Positions 677-16,409 of a stretch of 16,885 bases of DNA are shown piece after piece. The translations under genes were made by a program, and so were the position numbers. Origin of the DNA: a virus (Duplodnaviria; Heunggongvirae; Uroviricota; Caudoviricetes). The stretch lies in IMG/VR virus record IMGVR_UViG_2531839454_000016; one strand, given 5' to 3'. Numbering within the stretch: position 1 is the first letter of the stretch; each line of letters begins with the position of its first letter. The notes below the pieces were generated by a model. That model was not told the origin of the DNA. It searched no databases and worked only from the letters and a program-made list of their open reading frames with translations.

Positions 677-3250
677 TTACTGGACGGCGACAATCCGGTC
701 TTCATTAACTTCCAGGCGAATCACTTTACCCGGAACCAATTCACCAGACAGTATTTGCTGTGCCAGCGGGTTTTCGATCTGCTGCTGGATAGCACGTTTC
801 AAAGGACGTGCACCATAGACTGGATCGTAACCGTTCTCGCTCAGCAGTTTCAGCGCCTCGTCAGAAATGTGGATTTCATAACCACGTTCTTCCAGACGTT
901 TGTACAGACGTTTCAACTGAATCTGCGCAATCGAGGCAATGTGCTGTTCACCCAGCGGATGGAAGACCACCACTTCATCAATACGGTTAATGAATTCCGG
1001 ACGGAAGTTATGGCTTACCACACCGAGCACCAGCTCTTTCATGTGCGCATAATCCAGTTCACCGAAGCGTTCCTGAATCAAATCGGAACCGAGGTTAGAG
1101 GTCATAATGACAACCGTATTACGGAAGTCGACCGTTCTCCCCTGCCCGTCAGTCAGACGACCATCATCCAGTACCTGCAACAGAATGTTGAAGACATCCG
1201 GATGCGCTTTTTCCACTTCATCCAGCAGGATGACGGAATACGGACGACGACGCACAGCTTCGGTCAGGTAGCCACCTTCTTCATAACCGACATATCCCGG
1301 AGGCGCACCAACCAGACGAGACACCGAGTGTTTCTCCATAAACTCGGACATATCGATACGGACCATCGCCTCGTCGCTATCAAACATAAAGTTCGCCAGC
1401 GCCTTACAAAGCTCAGTTTTCCCCACACCCGTTGGGCCGAGGAACAGGAATGAACCAATCGGGCGATTTGGATCCGCCAACCCCGCACGGCTACGGCGAA
1501 TAGCGTTAGATACCGCATCAACCGCTTCGTTCTGACCAATGACGCGATGGTGCAGTTCTTGCTCCATACGCAGCAGTTTTTCGCGCTCGCTTTCCATCAT
1601 GCGAGAAACCGGAATCCCCGTCCAACGCGCCAGCACTTCAGCAATTTCGGCGTCGGTCACTTTATTACGCAACAGACGCATAGTTTTGCCTTCGAGCTGC
1701 GTTGCGGCTTCCAGTTGCTTTTCCAGTTCCGGGATTTTGCCGTATTGCAGTTCAGACATCCGCGCCAGGTCCCCCACACGGCGAGCCTGTTCAATAGCGA
1801 TTTTCGCCTGTTCCAGTTCCGCTTTAATGGTCTGCGTACCAGAAAGCGATGCCTTCTCTGCTTTCCACTCTTCTTCTAACTCGGAGTACTGACGTTCTTT
1901 GTCGCTCAGTTCTTCGTTGAGCATATCCAGGCGTTTTTTACTGGCTTCATCAGACTCTTTCATTAACGCCTGTTGTTCCAGTTTGAGCTGGATGATACGA
2001 CGATCGAGTCGGTCGAGTTCTTCTGGTTTTGAGTCAATCTGCATACGAATGCTGGATGCTGCTTCATCGATCAGGTCGATGGCTTTATCCGGCAGCTGAC
2101 GGTCAGCAATGTAGCGATGAGACAACGTCGCCGCTGCAACAATTGCCGGGTCAGTAATTTGCACATGGTGGTGCAATTCGTAACGTTCTTTCAGGCCACG
2201 CAGAATCGCAATGGTATCTTCAACAGAAGGCTCGGCAACAAACACTTTCTGGAAACGACGTTCCAGCGCAGCATCTTTTTCGATGTACTGGCGATATTCG
2301 TCAAGCGTCGTGGCACCTACGCAGTGCAATTCACCACGCGCCAGCGCCGGTTTCAGCATGTTTCCGGCGTCCATTGCGCCATCGGCTTTACCCGCGCCGA
2401 CCATGGTATGTAATTCGTCGATAAACAGGATGACGTTGCCTTCCTGTTTGGCAAGATCGTTAAGCACGCCTTTTAAACGTTCTTCAAACTCACCGCGATA
2501 TTTCGCCCCAGCCCCCAGCGCGCCCATATCCAGCGCCAGTACGCGGCGGCCTTTCAATCCTTCCGGCACTTCGCCGTTGATAATACGCTGCGCCAGACCT
2601 TCAACGATGGCAGTTTTACCGACGCCGGGTTCACCAATCAGTACCGGGTTATTTTTAGTACGACGTTGCAGCACCTGAATGGTACGGCGAATTTCTTCAT
2701 CACGACCAATCACCGGATCGAGTTTGCCCTGTTCGGCTCGTTCGGTAAGGTCGATGGTATATTTTTTCAAAGCCTGACGTTGGTCTTCAGCACCTTGATC
2801 GTTCACGCTTTCACCTCCACGCATTTGTTCAATCGCTTGAGTAATGTTGGCGGTGGTCGCCCCTGCTGCTTTCAGGATGTCGGCCAGCGTGCCGCGAGAC
2901 TCAAGTGCCGCCAGAACGAACAGTTCTGACGAGATAAAGTTATCACCACGTTTTTGCGCCAGCTTGTCGCAAAGATTAAGAACGCGCACCAGATCCTGTG
3001 ATGGCTGGACATCACCACCAGTACCTTCAACCTGCGGTAAACGATTTAATGCCTGATTGATATCTGTGCGCAACTGGCCAGCATTTATGCCAGCGGATGT
3101 TAATAAAGGACTAACCGAACCCCCTTCCTGATTCAGCAGGGCGCTCATTAAATGAAGTGGTTCGATAAATTGGTTGTCGTGCCCGAGTGCAAGTGATTGG
3201 GCATCGGCAAGAGCAAGCTGGAATTTATTAGTAAGACGATCCAGACGCAT
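677..3250 (-). CDS. clpB: ClpB disaggregase (Hsp100 AAA+ chaperone), 857 aa
   Basis: ORF 677..3262; translation from [20 protein letters not shown] to NEDRIVAVQ matches ClpB, with two AAA+ modules (GEPGVGKT and GPTGVGKT Walker A) and a coiled-coil middle domain. Start placed at the MRLDR ATG, preceded by GGGAGGAG. Confidence 0.95.
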
Positions 3251-3287
3251 AACTCCTCCCATAACGGATCAAAGTTGCTACTGGAGA

Positions 3288-3320
3288 TTAAATGAGGTCA
3301 TCCCTCAATTATTCAAGGTT
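3288..3320 (-). promoter_or_regulatory. Putative sigma32 heat-shock promoter of clpB
   Basis: Minus strand reads CTTGAATAATTGAGGGATGACCTCATTTAATC, with CTTGAA as -35 and CCTCATTTA as a sigma32-like -10 about 14 nt downstream. Confidence 0.55.
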
Positions 3321-3379
3321 ATTGACCAGATTAATGTGAAAAGAAAATCACGCGTACCGGATCGTCTTGATTCTTTAGG

Positions 3380-4111: not shown

Positions 4112-5088
4112 AACCAGTCCACTTCATCCTTATGCTCTTCGAAATCGGCGCGCATCACCTCAATCAGCTCCACCATATCTTGTGGAATAGGCGCATGCCA
4201 TTCCATTTCGATGCCGGAGATCGGGTGATAAAGACGCAGCATGGTTGCATGAAGCGCCTGGCGGTCAAACTTACGCAGCATGGAGATAAATGCTTCCGAA
4301 GCACCTTTTGGCGGACGCGGACGGCCACCATAAACCGGATCGCCCACCAGCGGATGAGTGATATGGGCCATATGCACGCGGATCTGGTGCGTACGTCCAG
4401 TTTCCAGACGCAACCGCAGACGCGTGTGCACACGGAAGTGTTCCATGATGCGATAGTGAGTCACCGCCGGTTTGCCCATCGGATGCACCGCCATGTGAGT
4501 ACGTTTGGTCGGGTGGCGGCTGATGGGTTCATCTACTGTACCGCCAGCGGTCATATGACCAATCGCCACCGCTTCATACTCACGAGTAATTTCACGCCGT
4601 TGCAAAGATTCGACTAAACGCGTCTGAGCCGGAACGGTTTTTGCCACAACCATCAGGCCAGTGGTGTCTTTATCCAGACGATGGACGATGCCCGCACGTG
4701 GTACATCGGCAATGGGCGGATAGTAATGAAGCAACGCATTCAGTACCGTGCCATCCGGGTTACCCGCGCCAGGATGTACCACCAGGTCGCGCGGTTTATT
4801 AATGACGATGATATCTTCATCTTCATAGACGATATCCAGCGGGATATCCTGCGGTTCAAAACGCGCTTCTTCTTCAATCTCAGCGTTGATGGCAACCTGC
4901 TCGCCACCCAATACTTTTTCTTTCGGCTTATCACAAACTTTGCCGTTTACCAGCACGCGCTGGTCGAGGATCCATTCTTTTATTCGCGAACGTGAATAAT
5001 CCGGGAACATTTCGGCCAAAGCCTGATCTAAGCGTTGACCGAGTTGGTTTTCGGACACCGTTGCAGTGAGCTGTACTCGTTGTGCCAT
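4108..5088 (-). CDS. rluD: 23S rRNA pseudouridine synthase RluD, 326 aa
   Basis: ORF 4108..5088; RluA-family pseudouridine synthase core motif HRLDKDTTGLMVVAK with an N-terminal S4-like domain; position divergent from bamD as in E. coli. Confidence 0.9.
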   Translation of the reverse strand: MAQRVQLTATVSENQLGQRLDQALAEMFPDYSRSRIKEWILDQRVLVNGKVCDKPKEKVLGGEQVAINAEIEEEARFEPQDIPLDIVYEDEDIIVINKPRDLVVHPGAGNPDGTVLNALLHYYPPIADVPRAGIVHRLDKDTTGLMVVAKTVPAQTRLVESLQRREITREYEAVAIGHMTAGGTVDEPISRHPTKRTHMAVHPMGKPAVTHYRIMEHFRVHTRLRLRLETGRTHQIRVHMAHITHPLVGDPVYGGRPRPPKGASEAFISMLRKFDRQALHATMLRLYHPISGIEMEWHAPIPQDMVELIEVMRADFEEHKDEVDWL

Positions 5089-6176: not shown

Positions 6177-6572
<396 letters not shown>

Positions 6573-6595: not shown

Positions 6596-6620
6596 AACGC
6601 GCCTTCGGGCGCGTTTTTTG
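6596..6620 (+). terminator. Rho-independent terminator after raiA
   Basis: AACGCGCC-TTCG-GGCGCGTT followed by TTTTTG. Confidence 0.75.
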
Positions 6621-6696
6621 TAAAGCTAACAAATTGTTTCTATTAGCTTATTTCTTATAAACATCCACAAACTGTCCACATCAGTAATGATATACA

Positions 6697-6722
6697 AGCC
6701 CGCAAAAAATGCGGGCTTTGTC
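6697..6722 (-). terminator. Terminator hairpin downstream of the methyltransferase gene
   Basis: AGCCCGC-AAAAAAT-GCGGGCT hairpin directly after the stop at 6723; T-rich on the minus-strand transcript. Confidence 0.6.
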
Positions 6723-7529
6723 TTATGTAGCCGAAATGGTTGTGGTAATAGTCCCCCGAAGCCGCTGCGCTGCTACCTCAAAATAATGATCACTGGTTTC
6801 TATACCAATAAATTTTCGCCCTGCTTTCAGTGCAGCCACACCCGTTGTCCCTGACCCCATAAAAGGATCAAGGACTGTTCCGCCACTATTCACAGTCCTG
6901 ACCAGTTCCGCCATTAGTTCTTCTGGTTTTCCGGTCGGGTGCATTTTCTTTGACGGGATAACCGGGTACGTCATGCAGCCGTCGAACGGCCCCGAAGGCG
7001 ATTTATCTAAATGGCCTTTGCTGCCCCAGACGATGTATTCACACTGATGCCTGAAATACCCCGTATGGGGTGTTCGTGACCCCCTCCCCTTGTTCCACGC
7101 AATGATGCCGCGCCATGTAAAGCCGCTGGCCTGAAACGCATCGGTTAAAGCTGGTAGTTGTCGCCAGTCAGTAAATACCAGGGCATAACCGCCCGGCCTG
7201 ACTGCGCGGTGTGCCTGTGCCATCCATAATTGTGTCCAGTAAGCCCACGAACGGGCGTCCATGTTTTCACCCGCGAACCCATCAAAGCGGTGAAGGTTCT
7301 CGCTGTTCAGATATTTTGCATGGCTGCCCTGGTTGGTGCGTCCGGCTTTGTGTGTCGCCCCCGAACTGTAAGGCGGGTCAGTGATTAAGGCATCAATGCT
7401 TTCTGGCTCAATCAGCGGCAATATTTCCAGCGCATTCCCACGACAGAGCGTGGCATTGTCAGTCTGATAAACCTTAGTGTGTTCCGGTGTATGTGCTGGT
7501 TGGTGCTGGATTGCGATCCCCACGGTCAT
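6723..7529 (-). CDS. DNA methyltransferase, amino-methyltransferase type (N6-adenine or N4-cytosine), 268 aa
   Basis: ORF 6723..7529; DPPY catalytic motif near the N-terminus (LITDPPYSSG) and AdoMet-binding FxGxG near the C-terminus (DPFMGSGTTG); ATG preceded by SD GAGGAG. Confidence 0.8.
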   Translation of the reverse strand: MTVGIAIQHQPAHTPEHTKVYQTDNATLCRGNALEILPLIEPESIDALITDPPYSSGATHKAGRTNQGSHAKYLNSENLHRFDGFAGENMDARSWAYWTQLWMAQAHRAVRPGGYALVFTDWRQLPALTDAFQASGFTWRGIIAWNKGRGSRTPHTGYFRHQCEYIVWGSKGHLDKSPSGPFDGCMTYPVIPSKKMHPTGKPEELMAELVRTVNSGGTVLDPFMGSGTTGVAALKAGRKFIGIETSDHYFEVAAQRLRGTITTTISAT

Positions 7530-7671
7530 AACTCCTCATGTGTGTGGGGTGCTCGATGGCTCTCGTTATCTGGTTAAGTGTTTTGCAGCGCGGACATTTT
7601 ATTTCAATGTAGTGAAATGAGGCGCGGGCAAGTAGTTTGTTGCAATTTTTGCATCGTACATTTTGCGTCAT
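7474..7671 (-). CDS. Com-like zinc-finger protein (phage Mu Com family translational activator), about 65 aa
   Basis: ORF 7474..7680; RCKNCNKLLA...HYIEIKCPRCKTLNQI closely resembles Mu Com (C-x2-C...C-x2-C). Its 3' end overlaps the methyltransferase start by 56 nt. ATG at 7671 preceded by AAGAGG; alternative GTG start at 7680. Confidence 0.7.
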   Translation of the reverse strand: MTQNVRCKNCNKLLARASFHYIEIKCPRCKTLNQITRAIEHPTHMRSYDRGDRNPAPTSTYTGTH

Positions 7672-7710
7672 TTGCGGCACCTCTTGTGTGGTTACTGCTG
7701 CCGATATGAT

Positions 7711-7760
7711 AACAAATCGATCGCTTTTATCGATCGGATTTATTGCATCGATCTGTTATG
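7711..7760 (-). promoter_or_regulatory. Cluster of three GATC (Dam) sites in repeated TCGATC motifs upstream of com; candidate methylation-sensitive operator/promoter
   Basis: GATC at 7719-7722, 7732-7735 and 7750-7753 within 35 bp, each inside TCGATCG/TCGATCT, 40-80 bp upstream of the com start. Confidence 0.45.
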
Positions 7761-7810
7761 CCTATTACTTATGAATGGTGTTACCCTCATTTATGAGGGC
7801 AACAAAAAGA

Positions 7811-7838
7811 AAACCCGCAGTTTTTACGCTGCGGGTTT
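7811..7838 (-). terminator. Rho-independent terminator after the zinc-ribbon/TM2 gene
   Basis: Minus transcript reads ACCCGCAG-CGTAAAAA-CTGCGGGT followed by TTTCTTTTTGTTG. Confidence 0.7.
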
Positions 7839-7863
7839 GTCATTCTGATTCGCCCACTAGGCA

Positions 7864-8160
7864 TTAGCCATATTTGCGGGCAAAGTCTTCATCAGAGGTG
7901 CATAGATAGATAAAAAACTCAATAAATGCCACGATTGCCGGAATGAATGTCCAGCAAAAAATAAGGTAAAGGAATCCTTGCCCCACTTTACCTAAATAAA
8001 ATTTGTGTGCACCAAGACCACCTAAAAAGAAAGCCAGTAGTGCGGCTGTCATTCTGCTTTTTGAACTTGCTGTTCTTTGAGGTGCTCCACAATTGGGGCA
8101 GGATGTGGCATCTTTATGTATTTCCTTGCCGCATCCGCGACAAAATACCATTTCACTCAT
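7864..8160 (-). CDS. Small membrane protein with N-terminal zinc ribbon and C-terminal TM2 domain, 98 aa, function unknown
   Basis: ORF 7864..8160; CRGCGKEIHKDATSCPNCG zinc ribbon; TM2 signature LLAFFLGGLGAHKFYLGKVGQGFLYL with two predicted TM helices; SD AAGGAA upstream. Confidence 0.7.
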   Translation of the reverse strand: MSEMVFCRGCGKEIHKDATSCPNCGAPQRTASSKSRMTAALLAFFLGGLGAHKFYLGKVGQGFLYLIFCWTFIPAIVAFIEFFIYLCTSDEDFARKYG

Positions 8161-8295
8161 AAAGAGTTCCTTTCAAATTTAAATAAGCGTTAAGCCCACC
8201 ACTCTTACTGGTGGGCCTCAATTTAAATTTGGGTGCCACTTCGACCATACCCTGGCAACCGATTGACGGGGGATTGCTCCCCCGTCGCGGTTTCC

Positions 8296-8436
8296 TTACT
8301 GCTTACACTGTAAGAACGCCGCAAACTCCGCTCCCCAGAAGCTCATCCGTATTTCACACAGCGAACCGTGCAGCATCCAGATGATGAGGATTACCGTCAC
8401 GCAGAACGTGATGGCCGTAAGCGATTTTTGCGACAT
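8296..8436 (-). CDS. Hok/Gef-family small membrane toxin homologue, 46 aa
   Basis: Hand translation of the minus strand gives MSQKSLTAITFCVTVILIIWMLHGSLCEIRMSFWGAEFAAFLQCKQ: a hydrophobic TM helix followed by the Hok signature SLCEIR...E.AAFL.CK. SD AAGGAG lies 8 nt upstream. Below the 60-aa cut-off of the ORF track. Confidence 0.75.
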   Translation of the reverse strand: MSQKSLTAITFCVTVILIIWMLHGSLCEIRMSFWGAEFAAFLQCKQ

Positions 8437-8627
8437 AGCGCTTGCTCCTTTGTTGGAGAGGCGCTAACCTATCACTTGCTTAAGGTAGATATGTTAGGGC
8501 CTCGGTTAAACAGAAATGTTTTCCGGGGCCTTTCCACATCTGGCCTTCGGGTATTCCCTCCGACCATCAGCCGAAAGGCACCCGCGCGTAATCTATCGCT
8601 TTTTTGTTACTCCGGCAATTCTGCCTG

Positions 8628-8888
8628 TTAATTCTGAGATAAAGGCAAACTCATCTGATTGTTTCCCCTGTGTGAAGCTGGCAGCTCATGCCACGGGATA
8701 CCTTCTGAAGAGTGAACGCCGGAGGCGTGTTTTGATGTGAATTTATGGAAAGCTTCCAGTGTTGAGAAGCATACGCCGCATTCCAGATTGTTACACTGGT
8801 AATACTTTTGCCGCACGGTGTTTGAATCATTTTCCGGACGACTGGTGCGGATACGGGCAGATGCGCCACAAAGCGGACAACGGAACAT
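8628..8888 (-). CDS. ogr: Ogr/Delta-family zinc-finger late transcription activator, 86 aa
   Basis: ORF 8628..8888; MFRCPLCGASARIRTSR...YYQCNNLECGVCF matches the P2 Ogr C-x2-C...C-x4-C motif; strong SD GGGAGG; located directly downstream of gpD as in P2. Confidence 0.85.
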   Translation of the reverse strand: MFRCPLCGASARIRTSRPENDSNTVRQKYYQCNNLECGVCFSTLEAFHKFTSKHASGVHSSEGIPWHELPASHRGNNQMSLPLSQN

Positions 8889-8930
8889 AGCGACCTCCCT
8901 TAACGTGGTGCTGCCGCTATTCTAAGTTGC

Positions 8931-10040
8931 TCACTCTGTTTCCGCTATCCATTCCGGGATTTTTGCCTCAAGCTCAAGCTGCGTGGTAAAGCCGCTGTTA
9001 TCAATGGTGTGCTCGGCTTTTGCAATAATCCAGTCCTGATTATCAATCTCGCTTTTAAATCCTGTTACCGTGCCATGCATTTCGGGGTAGAGTTCTGCTC
9101 GTCCACGTGCCAGCGTGATGGAGAATGATGCGGCTCCGCGTTGTAGTTGTTGCCACTTTGCCGCCGCTGCGCGTCTTGCTGCCTGCTCGTTCTGATAAGT
9201 CTTGCGTAACACAAACACATTGCCTTCCGCGCCTTCCATATAATCACCTTCACGGCTGCTGCTTTTCTCCTTTTTGGGTTTTGGCGGTTTGCGGCGTTTC
9301 ACGCTGACTTTTTTCTTTTTCCCGTAATTAAGATCAAGCCAGTAGGCGCGTACCCCCGTATACGCCTCGCGGTCAGCAATGCGGAACTGATGGCGATCGC
9401 CGCTGCTGCGTGTAATGGCGAACGAGGGCAACGGCTGGCCCTGTGCGTTCACGCCACCGCCTGGCATAATGAATAACAGATTGCCGCTTTTTACCGTGGT
9501 GATTGCGCCCAGCATTTCCGCCATGCGCGTAAGGAAGGACATGTCGCTTTCTTCGGTCTGGTCGGCGTGGTCGATTTCGATATCCATCAGCATTTCGCTG
9601 ATTTGCGGTTTCAGACCGTACCGATGAGCGATGGCGGATACCACGCGCTCAACGGTCACATCATGCCAGGACACCTCACGTTTAACGTTAAATTCATCCC
9701 GAAAATCTGCGCTTCTGGCTGAAACAGTCAGCCTGTCCGGCGGTCCTTCGTGAGCGATTTCATCAACAATGTAAGTGCCTTTTTCTGTCAGCGGTTCTCC
9801 TTTCCAGCCAATGAGAACCGTCAGGCGCGCGCCCCGTGGCGGTAGCTGCAACTGACCATCCGCATCATCCAGCGTGATGGTGAGCTGGTCCGCCTCAAAT
9901 CCCCGGTTGTCGGTCAGTGACAGGCTCATCAGGCGCTCTGCCACGCCTGACAGCGTTTTACCCTCCGCGAGAATATCAAAATCCGGCATTTTCACGGGGT
10001 CTGTGCCCTGACTGAGCAATTGCATGGTGGTGTCGGTCAT
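8931..10040 (-). CDS. Phage tail protein D (P2 gpD, late control D family), about 370 aa
   Basis: ORF 8931..10172; start placed at MTDTTMQLL (ATG 10040-10038) preceded by GGGAGGGAG; size and sequence character match P2 gpD. Confidence 0.85.
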   Translation of the reverse strand: MTDTTMQLLSQGTDPVKMPDFDILAEGKTLSGVAERLMSLSLTDNRGFEADQLTITLDDADGQLQLPPRGARLTVLIGWKGEPLTEKGTYIVDEIAHEGPPDRLTVSARSADFRDEFNVKREVSWHDVTVERVVSAIAHRYGLKPQISEMLMDIEIDHADQTEESDMSFLTRMAEMLGAITTVKSGNLLFIMPGGGVNAQGQPLPSFAITRSSGDRHQFRIADREAYTGVRAYWLDLNYGKKKKVSVKRRKPPKPKKEKSSSREGDYMEGAEGNVFVLRKTYQNEQAARRAAAAKWQQLQRGAASFSITLARGRAELYPEMHGTVTGFKSEIDNQDWIIAKAEHTIDNSGFTTQLELEAKIPEWIAETE

Positions 10041-10197
10041 CTGCTCCCTCCCTGTGTGGCATGGTCGCATGTGCGTGCGGAGGGGGTTACTGCTTTTTGT
10101 TGTCGCCGTGGCGGGAGAATGGCGCAGGGGTGAGATTACGCGCGTGGTGGGTGATGATTGTTGCCGAATCATTTAACGGATACAAGGGGCTGAAGCT

Positions 10198-11382
10198 ATG
10201 AGTGAAACTCGTTTTCATGGTGCCCGTGTTACGGAAAATACCGACCTGGTAACAGCGATTAACGATGTTGATTCCAGCGTTATCGGTATCGTGGCAACGG
10301 CGGATGATGCGGACGCGAAGCTGTTCCCGCTGAACAAGCCCACACTGCTGACCCGCGTCAATGACGTGCTGGGAAAATGCGGGACAACGGGGACGCTTTA
10401 TCGTGCGCTTAAGGCCATCGCAGACCAGGTGAGCACAAAGGTGATCGTCGTTCGCGTGGCTGAACACAAAGAAGAAGACGAAAAGACGCAGGATCAACTG
10501 GTTATCGGTGGTTCTGAGGATGACGGCAGCTATACGGGGATGTATGCGCTGCTTGTTGCAGAGCAGGATGAAAGCATCGGATACCGTCCGCGTATTCTGG
10601 CCGCGCCGGAGCTGGACACGGAGGCTGTAACAAAATCCCTGTGCGTGATTGCAGGTAAACTGCGCGCGTTTGTGTATGCCTCATGTCACGGCTGTAATAC
10701 GATGGCTGAGGCGATTACCTACCGCCAGAAATTCAACGAACGTGAGGGGATGCTCCTATGGCCGGACTTCATCGCCTACAACCCGAAAAGTGGCAAAAAC
10801 GAAACGTTCCCCGCGCCTGCCTATGCGTGCGGCCTTCGTGCGTACATTGACCATGAGCAGGGATGGCACAAATCACTGTCCAACGTTCCGGTTAAAAATG
10901 TGCTGGGGATGTCGAGGCATGTGTTCTGGTCGTTGCAGGCCGAAGACAGCGATGCCAACAGCCTCAACAACAAAGAAATCACGACCATTATTCGTCGCAA
11001 CGGGTTCCGATTCTGGGGCAACCGCACACCGGAAACGAACGCCTACATCTTTGAGGTGTATACCCGAACCGCACAGGTGCTGGCTGATTCAATTGCGGAA
11101 GCGCAGTTTGAAACCATCGACAGTCCACTGACGCCTGCGAACGTGAAGGATGTTATCAGTGCCATCAGGGCAAAACTGGATTCACTGGTTACTGCCGGGA
11201 AACTGATTGGCGCGGAGTGCTGGTATGACGTGGTGGATAATAGCACCACGGATTTACGTCAGGGGCGTGTGCGTATTCGCTACAAATATACGCCCGTTCC
11301 GCCACTGGAAGACATGGAGCTTTACCAGACGTTTACTGATGAATACTTTGAACCCGCATTTGCGGTGCTGGGAGGTGCCTGA
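10198..11382 (+). CDS. Contractile tail sheath protein (P2 FI-like), 394 aa
   Basis: ORF 10198..11382; size and position (before tube and E/T/U) match P2 FI; C-terminus overlaps the next start (TGATG). Confidence 0.9.
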   Translation: MSETRFHGARVTENTDLVTAINDVDSSVIGIVATADDADAKLFPLNKPTLLTRVNDVLGKCGTTGTLYRALKAIADQVSTKVIVVRVAEHKEEDEKTQDQLVIGGSEDDGSYTGMYALLVAEQDESIGYRPRILAAPELDTEAVTKSLCVIAGKLRAFVYASCHGCNTMAEAITYRQKFNEREGMLLWPDFIAYNPKSGKNETFPAPAYACGLRAYIDHEQGWHKSLSNVPVKNVLGMSRHVFWSLQAEDSDANSLNNKEITTIIRRNGFRFWGNRTPETNAYIFEVYTRTAQVLADSIAEAQFETIDSPLTPANVKDVISAIRAKLDSLVTAGKLIGAECWYDVVDNSTTDLRQGRVRIRYKYTPVPPLEDMELYQTFTDEYFEPAFAVLGGA

Positions 11383-11894
11383 TGGCTGTGCCAAAACATC
11401 TTCGCTTTTTTACGCTGTTTGTGGATGGTGAAAACGAAGTGGGTAAGGTGACGTCCGTCACTCTACCTAAGCTGACGCGCAAAACCGACAGCTACCGGGG
11501 TGGTGGCATGATGGGTGCGGTAAGTATTGATCTCGGTCTGGACGACTCCGCGCTTGATGCGAGCTTTGTCATGGGGGGCGCAGTTCGTGAGCTGTTCCTT
11601 AAGTATGGCGGCACGATTGACGGCACGCTGCTGCGTTTTGCGGGTGAATACTACACCGATGCAGAAAGCGACCTGTATGAAGTCGAAATGCGCGGACGTG
11701 TGACGGAAATTGATATGGGGGAAGCCAAACAGGGCGAAGCCACATCACACACTTACGCCATTAAAAACACCTACTACAAGCTGAGTGTTAACGATCGCCC
11801 GTTGTGGGAGATTGACCTGCTGAACTTCATTTACCGGAAGGACGGCAAGGACATTGTGCCTGACCGTATCCGTTCCGCGCTCGGGCTTGGCTGA
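11382..11894 (+). CDS. Tail tube protein (P2 FII-like), 170 aa
   Basis: ORF 11382..11894; size and position match P2 FII; SD GGGAGGTG. Confidence 0.9.
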   Translation: MAVPKHLRFFTLFVDGENEVGKVTSVTLPKLTRKTDSYRGGGMMGAVSIDLGLDDSALDASFVMGGAVRELFLKYGGTIDGTLLRFAGEYYTDAESDLYEVEMRGRVTEIDMGEAKQGEATSHTYAIKNTYYKLSVNDRPLWEIDLLNFIYRKDGKDIVPDRIRSALGLG

Positions 11895-11949
11895 TAAGTA
11901 ATATGCAGGCGGCGCAGTGCGTCGCCTCTGACTGAAAAGGAGAAAACTG

Positions 11950-12324
11950 ATGAAAGACATCGATACTGAAACCCGGAATAACACCGTGGCGGATGATGTG
12001 ACGGCAGGTGAGGATATGGCTGTCGAACGTGGCGTAAAACTGACCCGACCAATTGAGCGTGGTGGCGAAAAAATCACGTATGTGGAGATCACCGGGGCTA
12101 TTGAACAGGCTGGATCCCTGCGTGGTCTGTCGCTGTCTGATGTGCTGAATCTGAAAGCGGATACCATGTTCACGCTGTTGCCTCGCGTGACCTCGCCACG
12201 ACTGGATGAAGTGATGATTAAAAAAATGTCGTCACGCGATTTTATTCAGTTGTGCGCTGTGGCTGTAAATTTTATGAGCGAGCCAGACTCTGGCGCGAAG
12301 AGCGCGCAGGAGACGGCAGCGTAA
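11950..12324 (+). CDS. Tail assembly chaperone (P2 gpE-like), 124 aa
   Basis: ORF 11950..12324 between tube and tape-measure genes; SD AAGGAG; gpE-like pattern (L..PI.RGG..I..V.I...G.LRG.SL.D). Confidence 0.75.
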   Translation: MKDIDTETRNNTVADDVTAGEDMAVERGVKLTRPIERGGEKITYVEITGAIEQAGSLRGLSLSDVLNLKADTMFTLLPRVTSPRLDEVMIKKMSSRDFIQLCAVAVNFMSEPDSGAKSAQETAA

Positions 12325-12488
12325 TCACCCTGGTGTGCTTTGAGCACATCGAAGATCTGGTGGCAGATATCGCCGCCATTTTTAACTGGTCGCCCGCCGA
12401 AATCTTCATGATGACGCCCGGCGAAGTGGTTAGCTGGCGTGAGCGGGCGGCACTTCGCAGCGGGAATGCAGACAATGAAGACTCTTGA
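11950..12488 (+). CDS. Predicted E+E' fusion chaperone made by -1 programmed ribosomal frameshift near the end of E
   Basis: The -1 frame is open from 12222 to the stop at 12486-12488, overlapping the last 34 codons of E and ending at the tape-measure start. An A7 run (12220-12226) in the E frame is a candidate slippery site. Confidence 0.5.
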
Positions 12489-15282
12489 TATCCGGGTCGC
12501 TTTCAGCGCCGTTGACAGGCTGACCCGGCCTGCCGAAAACGCCCGCCGCCTGATGGGGCAGTTTGGTGACTCCATCCAGCGAACGCAGGGGGCGATCAAA
12601 AATCTCGAGCGTCAGGCGCGTTCATTTGAGCGCGCCCGTGACGCTGTCAGTAAAGCGGATGCGGGCATCGTGAAAGCACGACGCCAGCTTAACGCCCTTA
12701 ATCAGTTACAACGCACGGGTACAGTGCTCAGCGAAAAACAACAAAAGCTGATGCAGCAGTTAAGCACCCGGCTTGAACGCCTGAATGAATCGCGCACACG
12801 GGAAATTCAGAAAATGCGGGAACTTGGCGGAGAGCTGAAACGCCACGGCATTTCCCTGACAGGCAGCGATAACACCATCCAGCAGGCCATCAGACGCACC
12901 GAACAGTACAACAACCAGCTTGAACGCGAACGGCAGGCGCTTGCGCGTGTAACACGTGCGCGTGAGCGGTATTCGCGCGCGCAGGAAACCGCGGGAAAAC
13001 TGAAAACAGGTGGTGCGCTGGCAATTGGTGCGGCAGCGGCTGGCAGCTATGCTGCCGGGCGTTTTTTGCAGCCTGCGATCGGGTTCGGGAAAGAGATGTC
13101 CCGCGTTCAGGCACTGACGCGAATCGACAAAAACAGCCCGCAGTTTAAGGCGCTGCGTGAGCAGGCGTTAAAACTTGGCTCTGAAACGCAGTTCACCGCA
13201 GGCGATGCCGCCAGTGGGCAGGCATTTCTTGCAATGGCTGGCTTCACACCGCAGGCCATTCAGGCTGCGCTTCCGGGCGTGCTGAGCATGGCAACGGCTG
13301 GCGGTATGGATCTCGGCGAGACGGCGGATATTGGCTCAAATATCCTGACGCAGTTCGGCCTTTCTGCTGACCAGATGGACCGGGTCGGTGACACACTTAC
13401 CGCAGCGTTTACCCGTACCAACACTGACCTTCGCGCACTGGGTGAAACCATGAAATATGCAGGTCCGGTGGCGGGTAAGCTGGGAATATCGCTGGAGCAG
13501 GCCGCAGCGATGGCGGGCGTGCTGGCGAATATGGGTATCAGGGGTAGTGATGCTGGTACGGCAATGCGTGCCAGCCTGGCTCGTCTGGCATCACCGCCAA
13601 AGGCGGCAGCAGAGGCGCTGAAAGAGCTTGGCGTGTCTGTCTCGGATGCCGGGGGCAAAATGCGCCCGATGGAGGATGTGCTGGCTGACCTTTATAAAGC
13701 CACCCGCAAATACGGGGAAGTTGACCGGGTATCGTTCTTTAAGGACATTGCCGGAGAAGAGGCTTTCACATCATTTATGGCCCTCGTTGATGCGGCAGGT
13801 GACGGCTCCTTACCCAAACTGAGAAAAGAACTTGAAGGTGCGCGCGGTGAGGCTGAACGCACGGCAAAGGTTATGGCCAATAACCTTGATGGCGACCTGA
13901 AATCACTCGGCAGTGCATGGGAAGGGCTGCGTATCCGCATTGCAGATCTGATTGATGGTCCGCTGCGTTCTGTCACGCAGTGGCTCACGCGGGTGGTCTC
14001 AAAGGTGACGGCGCTGGCACAGGCCCATCCGGTACTGACGCGCCAGTTACTGATAGCAGGCGGTGCGCTGCTGGCAATGACTGCAACGGTTGGCTCGTTG
14101 TCGCTGGTTATTGGAGTGCTTCACGGGAAGCTGGCCACGTTGCGTCTTGGTTTTTCTCTCCTGACCGGATCAATGAATGCTGTCAGGGTTCTGCCTGCAT
14201 TATGGGGAATGGTGACAGGCTCCATCTCGTTACTGGGAGGCGCTGTCGGGGCGCTGTTCAGTCCGGTCGGGTTGATTGCTGCAGCGTTTGTCGCTGCGGC
14301 GGTTCTCATCTGGAAATACTGGGAACCCATCAAGGCGTTTTATGCCGGGGTGTTCAGTGGGATTATGGAAAGGCTGACCCCGTTGCGCGAAACCTTTGAA
14401 CGGTTTAGTCCTGTTTTTGACGCAATCGGGAGTGGGATCAGCCAGGTGTTTAACTGGTTTAAATCGCTGCTGTCACCGATGGAGTCCAGCAAGGAAACTC
14501 TGGATAAATGTACCAGTGCTGGCGAGATATTCGGTAACGTTCTTGGCGGTGCGTTACAACTTGTTCTGACACCTGCAAAAATGTTGCTGGATACGCTGGC
14601 GTGGATACTTGAAAAGCTTGGTGTGCTTCCGGATGAAGCGGAAAGGGCGCGCAAGAAAATCGAAGACGCACAGCGTGCGGCCATTCTTCAGGACAAGGTT
14701 GCCTTGCTTCAGGGGGACCTGGCGAAAATCAATCCGCCGAAGCCTGTGGAAAATGGCAATGGCACCGGAGGTGATAACCCCAAAGACAATAAACCGCTCA
14801 CAGACAGCAATACCGGTACGCTGCGCAGACTCAGCAAAATTGCTGATAACACAGGTAAGCTGGTTGAGGAGACGAAAAAACGCATTGGCCCCGGCGATAT
14901 TGTCTTTAAAAACCTGCCCCGGGCACTTGCTGTTCGTGGGGAGTGGCAGGAGCGGAAGATTGCGCAGGTCAGTAAGCCTGCCCCCGCAATTAATATCACA
15001 CCCGTGGTCCCGGCTCCGCTGCCTCCGGCGCTGGTCACTGTTGTTGCGGCCAGCTCCCGCCCGGTGGCGGAGGCTATACGATCTCCAGTGGCATCAGTTC
15101 CTGTAACTTCCCGTAACCGGGAGCCTGTTGCCTCCGAATTTGGTGGTGAAATTCATGTTCATCTGCATAACGTTGTTACGCAGAATCCCCGCGAACTGGC
15201 GAAACTGGTCGGTGAAATGGTCAGGGCAGAAATGGAACGGCGCGCCCGTGCCGGGCGTGGCAGTTTTTACGATAAAGATTGA
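12466..15282 (+). CDS. Tail tape measure protein (P2 gpT-like), about 939 aa
   Basis: ORF 12439..15282; long alpha-helical protein with a central hydrophobic segment and Gly/Ala-rich stretches typical of tape-measure proteins; sits between the E/E' chaperone and gpU. Start ambiguous (GTG 12439, ATG 12466 or ATG 12475). Confidence 0.85.
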   Translation: MQTMKTLDIRVAFSAVDRLTRPAENARRLMGQFGDSIQRTQGAIKNLERQARSFERARDAVSKADAGIVKARRQLNALNQLQRTGTVLSEKQQKLMQQLSTRLERLNESRTREIQKMRELGGELKRHGISLTGSDNTIQQAIRRTEQYNNQLERERQALARVTRARERYSRAQETAGKLKTGGALAIGAAAAGSYAAGRFLQPAIGFGKEMSRVQALTRIDKNSPQFKALREQALKLGSETQFTAGDAASGQAFLAMAGFTPQAIQAALPGVLSMATAGGMDLGETADIGSNILTQFGLSADQMDRVGDTLTAAFTRTNTDLRALGETMKYAGPVAGKLGISLEQAAAMAGVLANMGIRGSDAGTAMRASLARLASPPKAAAEALKELGVSVSDAGGKMRPMEDVLADLYKATRKYGEVDRVSFFKDIAGEEAFTSFMALVDAAGDGSLPKLRKELEGARGEAERTAKVMANNLDGDLKSLGSAWEGLRIRIADLIDGPLRSVTQWLTRVVSKVTALAQAHPVLTRQLLIAGGALLAMTATVGSLSLVIGVLHGKLATLRLGFSLLTGSMNAVRVLPALWGMVTGSISLLGGAVGALFSPVGLIAAAFVAAAVLIWKYWEPIKAFYAGVFSGIMERLTPLRETFERFSPVFDAIGSGISQVFNWFKSLLSPMESSKETLDKCTSAGEIFGNVLGGALQLVLTPAKMLLDTLAWILEKLGVLPDEAERARKKIEDAQRAAILQDKVALLQGDLAKINPPKPVENGNGTGGDNPKDNKPLTDSNTGTLRRLSKIADNTGKLVEETKKRIGPGDIVFKNLPRALAVRGEWQERKIAQVSKPAPAINITPVVPAPLPPALVTVVAASSRPVAEAIRSPVASVPVTSRNREPVASEFGGEIHVHLHNVVTQNPRELAKLVGEMVRAEMERRARAGRGSFYDKD

Positions 15283-15294
15283 GGAGTCATGGCC

Positions 15295-15783
15295 ATGATG
15301 ATGATCTACGGCATGTTTGTTTTTGAGCTGCGCACGCTGCCGCATCAGCAGTTACAGCAAAACAAAAGCTGGCGGCATGTGAAAAATGAACGCATTAACC
15401 GTTCAGCAAGCTGGCAGTATATCGGTGCAGGTGATGATCGCATCGTTCTTTCTGGTGTGCTTTATCCTGAAATTACAGGTGGCGAAGTGTCGCTGTCGCT
15501 GCTGACCACGCAGGCTTATACAGGACGACCCTGGCCTTTGATTGATGGCGTCGGGCAGATTTACGGCATGTATGTCCTGACTGGAACGAATACGACCCGT
15601 TCCGAGTTTGATCGCTACGGTAAGGCGAAAAAGATAGAATTTTCACTGACCCTTGAACGCTGTGATGAGGATTTGCGGGAGCGCCTGCAATCCTCATCGT
15701 TCAGTGATATGCTGTCCGGCTTCAAAGATAAGGTCACATCATCCCTTAACAGCGCGGCCAGCTCCGTTAAAGGGCTGTTTTGA
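15295..15783 (+). CDS. Tail protein U (P2 gpU-like), about 162 aa
   Basis: ORF 15289..15783; MMIYGMFVFELRTLP... resembles the P2 gpU N-terminus; SD GAGGAG at 15281-15286 favours the ATG at 15295. Confidence 0.85.
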   Translation: MMMIYGMFVFELRTLPHQQLQQNKSWRHVKNERINRSASWQYIGAGDDRIVLSGVLYPEITGGEVSLSLLTTQAYTGRPWPLIDGVGQIYGMYVLTGTNTTRSEFDRYGKAKKIEFSLTLERCDEDLRERLQSSSFSDMLSGFKDKVTSSLNSAASSVKGLF

Positions 15784-15790
15784 TTAACGC

Positions 15791-15820
15791 AAAACCGCTA
15801 ATGGTCAGATTAGCGGTTTT
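15791..15820. terminator. Perfect 12-bp hairpin between the convergent gpU and invertase genes (likely bidirectional terminator)
   Basis: AAAACCGCTAAT-GGTCAG-ATTAGCGGTTTT followed by CATTTTCC on the plus strand; overlaps the last codons of the invertase. Confidence 0.6.
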
Positions 15821-16409
15821 CATTTTCCTGAGTCTGCCTGGTTGTTTCTTCAGCCTGTATATCGCCTACAGGGTGATAACGATAAATCGTCGATATGCCG
15901 ATGTCGTAAATGATCGCCAGTTGTTTCCTGTCATGACCGTTTTTAATCAGCCTCGCTATTTGCTCGTGTTGTTCTTTTGTCAACTTCGGGCGACGTCCGC
16001 CAATGCGTCCTTGTGCGCGTGCTGCTGCCAGCCCGGCCAGGGTACGCTCTACAATTAATTCACGTTCCATTTCGGCTAAAGCCCCCATGACGTGAAAAAA
16101 GAAACGCCCCATGGGTGTTGATGTGTCAATGCTGTCCGTCAGACTACGGAAATTAACACCTTTTTCCCGCAATTCCTCAATAAGCGTGATCAGGTGTTTC
16201 ATACTTCTGCCCAGTCTGTCCAGCTTCCAGACAACCAGCGTATCTCCTTCTGATAGCGTTCTGATCAGTTTTTTCAATCCCGGTCTGGCTGATTTCGTTC
16301 CGCTGATTTTATCTTCAAAAATTAGTTCACATCCTGCGCACTCCAGCGCGTTACGCTGCAATTCTGTATTCTGGTCATTTGTTGATACGCGGACATAGCC
16401 AATAAGCAT
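15810..16409 (-). CDS. Serine-recombinase DNA invertase (Hin/Gin/Pin/Cin family), 199 aa
   Basis: ORF 15810..16409; MLIGYVRVSTNDQNTELQRNAL...VVWKLDRLGRSMKHL...GRRPKL is near-identical in pattern to e14 Pin and Mu Gin, including the catalytic serine and C-terminal HTH. Confidence 0.92.
   Translation of the reverse strand: MLIGYVRVSTNDQNTELQRNALECAGCELIFEDKISGTKSARPGLKKLIRTLSEGDTLVVWKLDRLGRSMKHLITLIEELREKGVNFRSLTDSIDTSTPMGRFFFHVMGALAEMERELIVERTLAGLAAARAQGRIGGRRPKLTKEQHEQIARLIKNGHDRKQLAIIYDIGISTIYRYHPVGDIQAEETTRQTQENENR

Follow-up and report, generated by a model that had tools for sequence, protein, structure and literature searches.

The phage DNA that adjoins the host chromosome in IMG/VR virus record IMGVR_UViG_2531839454_000016 (16,885 nucleotides (nt), referred to below as the window) is an accessory arm at the attachment-site (att) end of a P88-like Escherichia coli prophage. 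This arm (positions 6622-8627, between the host/phage junction at 6621/6622 and the late-gene activator gene ogr) is a mosaic and not one island, its three modules having separate histories: a hok/sok-type toxin locus that belongs to the backbone of the phage lineage; a gene for a small zinc-ribbon membrane protein of the TM2 family (ZnR-TM2), nested in the hok transcription unit; and an orphan DNA methyltransferase (MTase) that appears to be gated at the level of translation by a Com protein, in the manner of the mom gene of phage Mu. As an account of the whole arm this is the best explanation that we can offer, and probably the right one. The original prediction for this DNA had placed about 2.2 kb of extra genes here, in one compact accessory or defence island made up mostly of uncharacterised components. 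The extra DNA amounts to 2006 bp. The five proteins that had been named (MTase, Com, ZnR-TM2, Hok and Ogr) are present where they had been placed, all scoring above curated hidden Markov model thresholds, and "uncharacterised" holds for ZnR-TM2 but not for hok and com-MTase, which are of known kinds. The hotspot in which the cargo lies, the hok locus and the Com gate all have precedents; ZnR-TM2 and its insertion within the hok transcript are the only unexplained elements of the arm.

The separate histories of the modules emerge from the comparison of 80 IMG/VR loci with Ogr 98-100% identical, 78 of which are long enough for hok to be assessed, and from a census of 5426 complete E. coli genomes. 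A hok gene stands directly 3' of ogr in 76 of these 78 loci. DNA identity to the window covers the first 400 nt after ogr (8630-8231) and then breaks; the 51 loci with at least 1 kb beyond the break fall into 10 content classes, as follows.

13 loci: com-MTase directly
12 loci: a 110-amino-acid (aa) ZnR-membrane protein and a VasI-like protein
8 loci: a 131-aa secreted protein, then host genes
8 loci: no cargo, with serS (7) or ihfA (1) directly next
5 loci: TM2
2 loci: a YafO toxin pair
1 locus: an IS3 element
remaining loci: other contents

The hok locus and attP bound the hotspot, and the number of cargo genes between these flanks runs from 0 to at least 4 in closely related phages. The earlier description of the interval as variable cargo is accordingly apt for the region downstream of hok and inapt for hok itself, which is lineage backbone. 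The modules are inherited independently: in locus L013 TM2 follows hok at the flk site and the MTase is absent, 15 loci have the MTase but lack TM2, and hok is missing only rarely. Among the E. coli genomes the ogr-hok block is present in 1179, the com-MTase module in 172 and the TM2 module in 94; over these 94-172 genomes the modules are 98-100% conserved. Outside the IMG/VR set the same place holds a RES-domain pair in P884B11, a WapI-like immunity pair ahead of com-MTase in L099 and a weak DUF4177 match in P88.

Several loci deserve separate mention. The commonest alternative cargo (L020 d598-1828, L006, L007, L008) begins with the 110-aa zinc-ribbon protein, which has two predicted transmembrane helices and hence a ZnR-TM2-like architecture without a TM2 domain match, and continues with a 297-aa VasI-like (PF11319) secreted protein. 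In L009 and L011 (1-5566) a different backbone, with tail-fibre and HP1_ORF34-like genes and no ogr called, is joined at ~8595 to an identical hok-TM2-com-MTase-raiA array; this join points to recombination at the hok promoter. The D-ogr-hok-TM2-com-MTase array, together with P88-like tail genes, is also found on the 129-kb plasmid pCREC455-3 (L198, NZ_CP183151.1) of E. coli strain 455, which carries a chromosomal copy of the array as well.

Hotspots of P2-like phages have been described at gpA-gpQ and Z/fun, with minor ones at int-att and int-gpA (PMC9122126, PMC13586616). The present one shares with published P2-like hotspots (also 10.1101/2024.10.15.618418) the arrangement of conserved flanks, here ogr-hok on one side and attP/int on the other, around variable content. 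It differs from them in what it contains: a mom-like operon, small membrane proteins, type II toxins and an immunity-like gene, but no recognised defence systems. Neither of the two papers on P2-like hotspots, nor the iLund4u preprint, refers to ogr, hok, TM2 or methyltransferases there, the P88 genome paper yielded no matches to ogr, hok or methyltransferase, and literature searches found nothing on hok beside ogr. The PADLOC search that the original prediction had proposed returned no defence system: PADLOC-DB v2 gives 0 families for Com, TM2, Hok and Ogr, the MTase matches only the generic MTase_II/oMTase models, and the ten alternative cargo proteins that were also searched have no real match.

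The module next to the host junction is, as judged from its sequence, a functional analogue of the Mu com-mom operon. Its parts are these.

6723-7529, minus strand: orphan beta-class N6/N4 DNA methyltransferase, 268 aa (PF01555, 116 bits, E 2.3e-33; phrog_67; PADLOC MTase_II)
7474-7680, minus strand: com, a Mu Com-type zinc-ribbon translational activator, 68 aa (PF10122, 44.5 bits, E 1.1e-11)
7511-7564, minus strand: MTase translational control region, comprising a Com target and a start-codon hairpin
7706-7753, minus strand: com-MTase promoter region, with extended -10 TGtTATCAT and -35 TCGATA (promoter-like site 7733-7706)
7753-7747, 7735-7729 and 7722-7716, minus strand: three GATCGAT heptamers within 38 bp

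The com product (65 aa from the RefSeq start) also matches phrog_13819, "gpCom control of modification", and has four invariant Cys residues in the alignment; its gene overlaps the start of the MTase gene by 56 nt. The MTase is placed in the beta class by the order of its motifs, ITDPPYSS at residues 49-56 (DPPY 51-54) and DPFMGSGTTG at 217-226, and among solved structures it is closest to an "Adenine specific DNA methyltransferase (DpnA)" (5hek) and to CcrM (E ~1e-20). The gene is flanked by the att site and com. There is no cognate restriction endonuclease, nor any further open reading frame (ORF) with a family match, between attL and ogr.

The Com target, GAGAGCCAUCGAGCACC (7564-7548), begins 35 nt and ends 19 nt 5' of the MTase AUG (7529). 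It fits the SELEX motif GAGNNCC(N2-3)GAGNNCC exactly, and the window has no second match (0.03 expected). Extended by two bases to GAGAGCCAUCGAGCACCCC, it is identical at 14 of 19 positions to GAAUGCCUGCGAGCAUCCC, the native 19-mer target of Mu Com (PMC6483171). Directly after the target, a predicted hairpin CCCCAC...GUGGGG (-17.5 to -20.7 kcal/mol) encloses both the Shine-Dalgarno (SD) sequence GAGGAG and the AUG, an order of elements that matches the translation-inhibition structure of Mu. Among 80 IMG/VR com loci the same or a similar site, together with a start-codon hairpin, lies ahead of most adjoining downstream genes, those of all enterobacterial loci included; the exact Com motif is missing in some distant loci of this set. 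Representatives of these downstream genes belong to four unrelated families, Mom (PF25680), C5 (PF00145), D12 m6A (PF02086) and N6_N4 (PF01555), with analogous start-codon stems in the com-mom, com-C5 and com-D12 loci. The likeness extends to the promoter. Three of the six GATCGAT copies in the window fall within the 38 bp that overlap the -35 element and the spacer, the GATC sites of the com promoter are kept in relatives, and enterobacterial com operons, Mu-like com-mom loci among them, have 2-3 (C)GATCGAT per 150 nt against a background that is mostly below 0.5. In Mu, the GATC sites of the promoter mediate control by Dam and OxyR.

The overlapping com gene, the Com RNA target, the stem-loop that hides the start codon, the promoter GATC cluster and the position at a genome end are all common to this module, Mu com-mom, Hin1523/Nma1821/Hia5 and B3 ORF47/48. 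The control is com-mom-like, but the enzyme is not Mom (PF25680 in Mu, PF01555 here). Com-gated methyltransferases of a different enzyme class are known to stand in place of mom in FluMu, Pnm1 and B3 (PMC3299994); the FluMu and Pnm1 enzymes are Dam-like and D12-class, whereas the present one is a beta-class N6/N4 enzyme. Its assignment to the non-specific Hia5/Hin1523 family was rejected: those enzymes are Dam-like, with DPPY at about residue 194, and this PF01555 protein has DPPY near its N-terminus. The carrier also differs, Mu being a transposable phage and this a P2-family integrating phage, and so does the late activator, which in Mu is C and here would be Ogr, without such a site having been identified: inspection by eye, with no formal test, revealed no Ogr-type late promoter dyad at the expected position. 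A near-perfect 26-bp dyad, TGTTGCCCTCATAAATGAGGGTAACA (7779-7804), is situated between the nearby terminator and the com promoter; it is kept in most relatives and absent in phage Chuche. As a candidate Ogr-type late-promoter site it was rejected on account of a spacing and position that do not fit TGT-N12-ACA at -55, and of its absence in Chuche.

The way in which such a module would work can be outlined by analogy with Mu. Com would be translated first, bind its target upstream of the stem-loop that hides the SD and AUG of the MTase gene, and open that stem-loop. The MTase would be made only once Com accumulates, presumably late in lytic growth, and may then methylate progeny DNA and so guard it from restriction by the host. 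Early production of the enzyme would be toxic, and the gate would act at translation. Because com-MTase carries the full Mu mom regulatory signature, a late, phage-protective anti-restriction role is favoured over defence or exclusion. The MTase is thus probably an agent of counter-defence, in place of the defence or exclusion function that had been proposed for it.

The module at the other end of the arm is a type I toxin locus of the hok/sok kind, with the following elements.

8226-8620, minus strand: hok/sok-type type I toxin locus (PF01848; sub-gathering Rfam sok match; folded mRNA with 5'-3' closure)
8618-8590, minus strand: hok promoter TTGCCG-17-TAGATT, both hexamers of which are kept in a Stx-phage hok
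~8583, minus strand: predicted 5' end of the hok mRNA, GGGUGCC
8567-8472, minus strand: leader ORF of 31 codons
8296-8436, minus strand: hok ORF (PF01848, 30.1 bits, cut-off 22; phrog_251 "MokW-like host killing", E 2.5e-23)
8232-8226, minus strand: 3' fbi element GGCACCC, which pairs with the mRNA 5' end

The 399-nt stretch 8583-8185 has a predicted minimum free energy of -177 kcal/mol (z -7.2), with GGGUGCC...GGCACCC paired. In an RNAalifold analysis of 10 divergent loci, a Stx-phage hok and a hok allele of 48% identity among them, this 5'-3' closure, of the fbi type by which hok mRNAs are defined, is unchanged, and compensatory change is found at 6 other pairs of the fold. The Hok/Gef ORF, the structured mRNA of ~360-400 nt and the tac-fbi 5'-3' closure are held in common with R1 hok/sok (parB) and with chromosomal and Stx-phage hok; the Stx2-phage hok locus is 84.6% identical in nucleotide sequence to this one, and its leader shows homology to the Rfam sok/hok model. 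In R1, mok overlaps hok; here the 31-codon leader ORF ends 36 nt before hok. A foreign gene (TM2) between fbi element and terminator is peculiar to the present variant of hok/sok. Nothing in the interval reaches the Rfam gathering threshold; matches to MicC, Trp-leader and similar models (E 0.1-3) were dismissed as terminator look-alikes.

Two hok alleles occupy the same site, one 96-100% identical and the other 48% identical at the protein level. The latter is found in L019, L022, L023, L032, L041, L057, L072, L082 and L094 (d 190-335 after ogr), with com-MTase next in 9 of 9. The two alleles have nearly identical 5' and 3' untranslated regions. In front of the hok start their hairpins differ by compensatory changes, possibly the mark of a separate Sok specificity group.

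By analogy with plasmid R1, a constitutive promoter would generate a hok mRNA of ~360-400 nt locked by pairing between its 5' end and its 3' fbi element; an unstable antisense RNA would silence it, and Hok would kill upon loss of the element or shut-off of transcription. Its role would be to stabilise the prophage, possibly with abortive infection as a side effect. A maintenance role of this kind fits the ParM and partition proteins that are also encoded in this prophage as found in E. coli E2855 (L003 5732-7007, outside the window). Counterparts of both stability systems of plasmid R1, ParM/partition and a hok/sok-type locus, are consequently present in the same prophage, a pairing that hints at a plasmid-like maintenance stage.

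Between these two lies the ZnR-TM2 module.

7840-8230, minus strand: ZnR-TM2 module, a 391-bp low-GC insert with limits drawn from comparison with relatives
8174-8231: inverted repeat (palindrome) upstream of the TM2 ORF, without a T-tract
7864-8160, minus strand: ZnR-TM2 ORF, 98 aa (PF05154, 68.6 bits, cut-off 27.9; zinc ribbon PF13240)
7811-7838, minus strand: intrinsic terminator with a 10-bp stem and T-run, ancestrally that of hok and now behind TM2

The GC content of the module is 0.41, and ~0.53 in its flanks. In relatives without TM2, the fbi element is followed by ~25 nt and then by the terminator AAACCCGCAG...CTGCGGGTTTTCTTTTT; in the window, the 391-bp segment 8230-7840 is inserted exactly between the fbi element and that terminator. 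Because the same hairpin follows the fbi element in these relatives, the terminator at 7838-7811 is the displaced terminator of hok, and because the module sits between the fbi element and this terminator, TM2 is nested in the hok transcription unit. No terminator-like site was found in a scan between hok and TM2. Each gene of the interval had been credited with a terminator of its own, which is only partly true. The one minus-strand terminator that the scan places after a gene of the interval is that behind TM2, in origin the terminator of hok; behind the MTase gene there is a hairpin (6696-6718), but its T-tract is on the plus strand only. In the lysogen TM2 is probably transcribed, at least in part, by read-through from the hok promoter.

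The ZnR-TM2 protein has an N-terminal CxxC...CxxC ribbon, modelled helices at residues 34-55 and 59-97, and a near-invariant tail, SDEDFARKYG; residues G47, G50, H52, F54, Y55, L56 and G57 are invariant in the TM2 alignment. It has in common with the TM2 family (PF05154; "NINE protein", "YozV-like") the two-helix domain and the GxxGxHKFYLG signature, and with many bacterial members the zinc ribbon. Literature searches found no functional work on bacterial TM2 proteins. The protein has 1567 homologues, and among the matches listed identity is 65-86% over many Enterobacterales genera. In Yersinia a lone chromosomal gene beside ihfA encodes it; the Enterobacter gene, also alone, is flanked by cpxP and fieF and has no phage DNA in its vicinity. 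A second P2-like lineage of E. coli has the gene directly behind a different ogr (82-aa product), without hok. This recurrent placement after ogr in P2-like prophages is newly described here. Only one deposited phage has a full-length TM2 relative; in PHROGs, phage families match (phrog_10292, E 1e-43). Between TM2 copies dN/dS is 0.03-0.08 with synonymous sites saturated, and the gene is under strong purifying selection. The Yersinia and Enterobacter genes were considered as relics of decayed P88-like prophage ends, and this was rejected, there being no hok, ogr or other DNA of the arm in their flanks. The TM2 genes of Enterobacter (next to cpxP) and of the second E. coli P2-like lineage have a common upstream motif, TTTTTCTGnATTnTTTGTAAAAT (L109/L114, ~4950-4990), which contains one GTAAA and could be a CpxR-type half site.

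Our best guess is that ZnR-TM2 would be a small oligomeric membrane protein, made from the prophage, that alters properties of the envelope or inner membrane, its effect being superinfection exclusion or envelope fitness. A more pointed proposal would make it an unrecognised single-gene prophage function, active in superinfection exclusion or abortive infection at the membrane or else in modulating Hok, which its insertion coupled to the constitutive transcript of hok, the 3' end of hok being a landing pad for morons. This proposal must be called improbable; were it true, such a landing pad would give incoming morons lysogen-stage expression.

These modules sit in a prophage that can be placed with some precision. 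The host part of the window comes from the chromosome of E. coli and comprises the 5' end of rrnG 16S rRNA, clpB with the small RNA (sRNA) RyfD, yfiH, rluD, bamD and raiA, after which the prophage begins. E. coli E2855 (NZ_AP018796) has the interval with 100% identity and with the same five genes annotated in RefSeq; its prophage extends over ~38 kb between raiA and pheL and includes a full set of P2-family genes, the integrase adjoining pheL. The prophage is P88-like (Xuanwuvirus, Peduoviridae) and is inserted in the raiA/RaiZ terminator, between raiA and pheL. The features at its borders are these.

6231-6572: raiA, the host gene adjoining the prophage
6596-6621, plus strand: attL core AACGCGCCTTCGGGCGCGTTTTTTGT, at the raiA/RaiZ intrinsic terminator, from comparison with K-12 and with the far end in E2855
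6622-6722: phage attP arm; the T-tract of its hairpin at 6696-6718 lies on the plus strand, which would make it a terminator for that strand only
8628-8888, minus strand: ogr, the late-gene activator and conserved flank of the cargo arm (PF04606, E 5e-14)

Host identity to K-12 stops at 6621, phage DNA starts at 6622, and the 26-nt att core recurs with 1 mismatch at attR beside pheL. The original view of the interval as phage-borne accessory DNA at the att-proximal end is borne out. A terminator scan finds a terminator-like site within the core (6596-6615). In K-12 the raiA terminator at the att core doubles as the 3' end of RaiZ, an sRNA, and it is regenerated at both ends of the prophage; at attR the duplicated terminator abuts the TTGACA between the core and the nearby pheL, and both host units appear to be preserved.

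P2, in which ogr is followed directly by the attachment site, had been taken for comparison. The nearest deposited phages are in fact P88, P884B11 (both Xuanwuvirus), 500465-2 (Gemsvirus), PhiR44_2, Shae_phiSM and Chuche. The four gene tables that run through the region (Chuche, P884B11, 500465-2 and PhiR44_2) have the layout (cargo)-hok-ogr-D, divergent from FI-FII-E-T-U; in Chuche and P884B11 an integrase lies beyond the cargo. In the stretch of P88 that was examined, hok and D are present and an ogr match is unannotated. Because int-attP-(cargo)-hok-ogr-D is the normal P88-like layout, P2 is not the right reference. All five genes lie on one strand, as had been said, namely the minus strand, which is that of D and ogr; to call it the late-gene strand is imprecise, FI-FII-E-T-U running the opposite way. 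In P2, D, ogr and FI-FII-E-T-U all point in one direction, whereas D and ogr are inverted relative to FI-FII-E-T-U in this lineage (8931-16058 in the window), a trait common to Chuche, P884B11 and PhiR44_2. A conserved morphogenetic role for these genes would have told against the notion of cargo; no gene of the interval has such a role.

Elsewhere in the window, the gpD ORF (8931-10172) comprises 413 codons from its first ATG, RefSeq gives 266 aa and a pseudogene fragment in E2855, and gpD has 366-369 aa in related phages; the start is probably MTDTTMQLL at ~10040. The DNA invertase (recombinase family; 15810-16409, minus strand) adjoining the tail-fibre genes is the usual host-range switch of the P2 family, and the tail-fibre assembly gene beside it is frameshifted in E2855. 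RyfD (3231-3369, minus strand, upstream of clpB; RF02768, 125 bits) is an ordinary host feature.

A number of observations weigh against parts of this account. The hairpin over the MTase start codon is only modestly more stable than shuffled sequence (z -1.9 to -2.0), and its stem is conserved rather than covarying among close relatives. The Rfam sok model scores 47.9 bits (E 4.8e-9) against the hok leader, below the gathering score of 59; Sok RNA and its promoter were not located, a scan of the plus strand at 8440-8600 being devoid of promoter-like sites; and a mok-like frame overlapping hok is absent, none of at least 20 codons being present and the only upstream ORF stopping short of the hok AUG. 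The sole indication of read-through from hok into TM2 is the lack of a canonical terminator, and the hairpin at 8190-8215 could terminate or stabilise the hok mRNA. The AlphaFold2 model of ZnR-TM2 is of low confidence (pLDDT 66, pTM 0.34).

A single lysogen-expressed defence or exclusion island, with Hok as abortive effector, ZnR-TM2 as superinfection-exclusion factor and the MTase as a defence component, would agree with the location at a prophage end, with the variability of the region between relatives, and with the YafO, RES and WapI-like toxin/immunity modules that take the same place elsewhere. P2-like phages carry defence hotspots (PMC9122126, PMC13586616). Such an island is nonetheless unlikely: its supposed parts are inherited separately, Hok, TM2 and Com have no PADLOC model, the MTase has generic matches and no nuclease partner, and the com circuit is of a type that serves phage self-protection by anti-restriction. 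Hok/sok of plasmid R1 reportedly excludes T4, which would speak for this proposal; a dN/dS below 0.1 and the lone occurrence of TM2 in core chromosomal neighbourhoods, both unusual for a fast-evolving defence gene, speak against it. The same two properties lend themselves to a different reading of ZnR-TM2, as a protein of envelope or inner-membrane physiology (in membrane stress, for example) that would be a host-fitness moron and not a gene of phage conflict. Homologues 70-80% identical stand singly in the stable Enterobacter and Yersinia contexts with no phage genes nearby, the spread over Enterobacterales and the single deposited phage relative fit, and still the presence of the gene at the ogr-proximal end of two different E. 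coli P2-like lineages suggests repeated selection in phage genomes; the PHROGs match also tells against this reading. We would treat physiology as a possibility to be kept in mind, and a doubtful one, somewhat ahead of the defence island.

For the MTase, the competing idea is an orphan enzyme active in the lysogen, either as an epigenetic regulator or as a means of immunising chromosome and prophage against restriction met elsewhere. The sigma-70-like promoter with its extended -10, and the absence, on inspection by eye, of a late-promoter dyad at the expected position, lean that way. The complete Com target and start-codon hairpin imply, on the contrary, a block to translation without Com, and the GATC cluster overlapping the promoter fits methylation-sensitive control of the mom type. 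Mu and the Com-linked Hin1523/Hia5 enzymes have no activity in uninduced cells (PMC3299994). Activity in the lysogen is, on this evidence, distinctly unlikely, and the Com-gated late enzyme remains the preferred reading. Least probable by far, and hardly to be credited, is that the interval is a decaying, non-functional remnant at the edge of a defective prophage. RefSeq's shortened gpD with its adjacent pseudogene fragment in E2855, and insertion sequences at this spot in some relatives (L043), could be cited for it; against it stand intact ORFs with good SD sequences, intact regulatory RNA elements, near-identity of the modules across many genomes with no frameshifts or premature stops observed in copies, a full prophage gene set that includes the integrase, and the isolated phage Chuche, which carries hok-com-MTase.

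For the biology of these phages and their hosts the arm matters in three ways. The ogr-hok block is found in about one-fifth of E. coli genomes, which makes the hotspot behind it a practical place to mine accessory genes. ZnR-TM2 is a conserved and widespread small membrane protein, and its repeated capture beside ogr offers a cheap experimental handle on the bacterial TM2 domain. The control circuit of Mu mom emerges as a portable gate, which in the surveyed loci precedes four unrelated families of DNA-modifying enzymes and which is found here in a P2-family phage; this matters for predicting which prophage methyltransferases would be silent in lysogens and yet arm virions against restriction.

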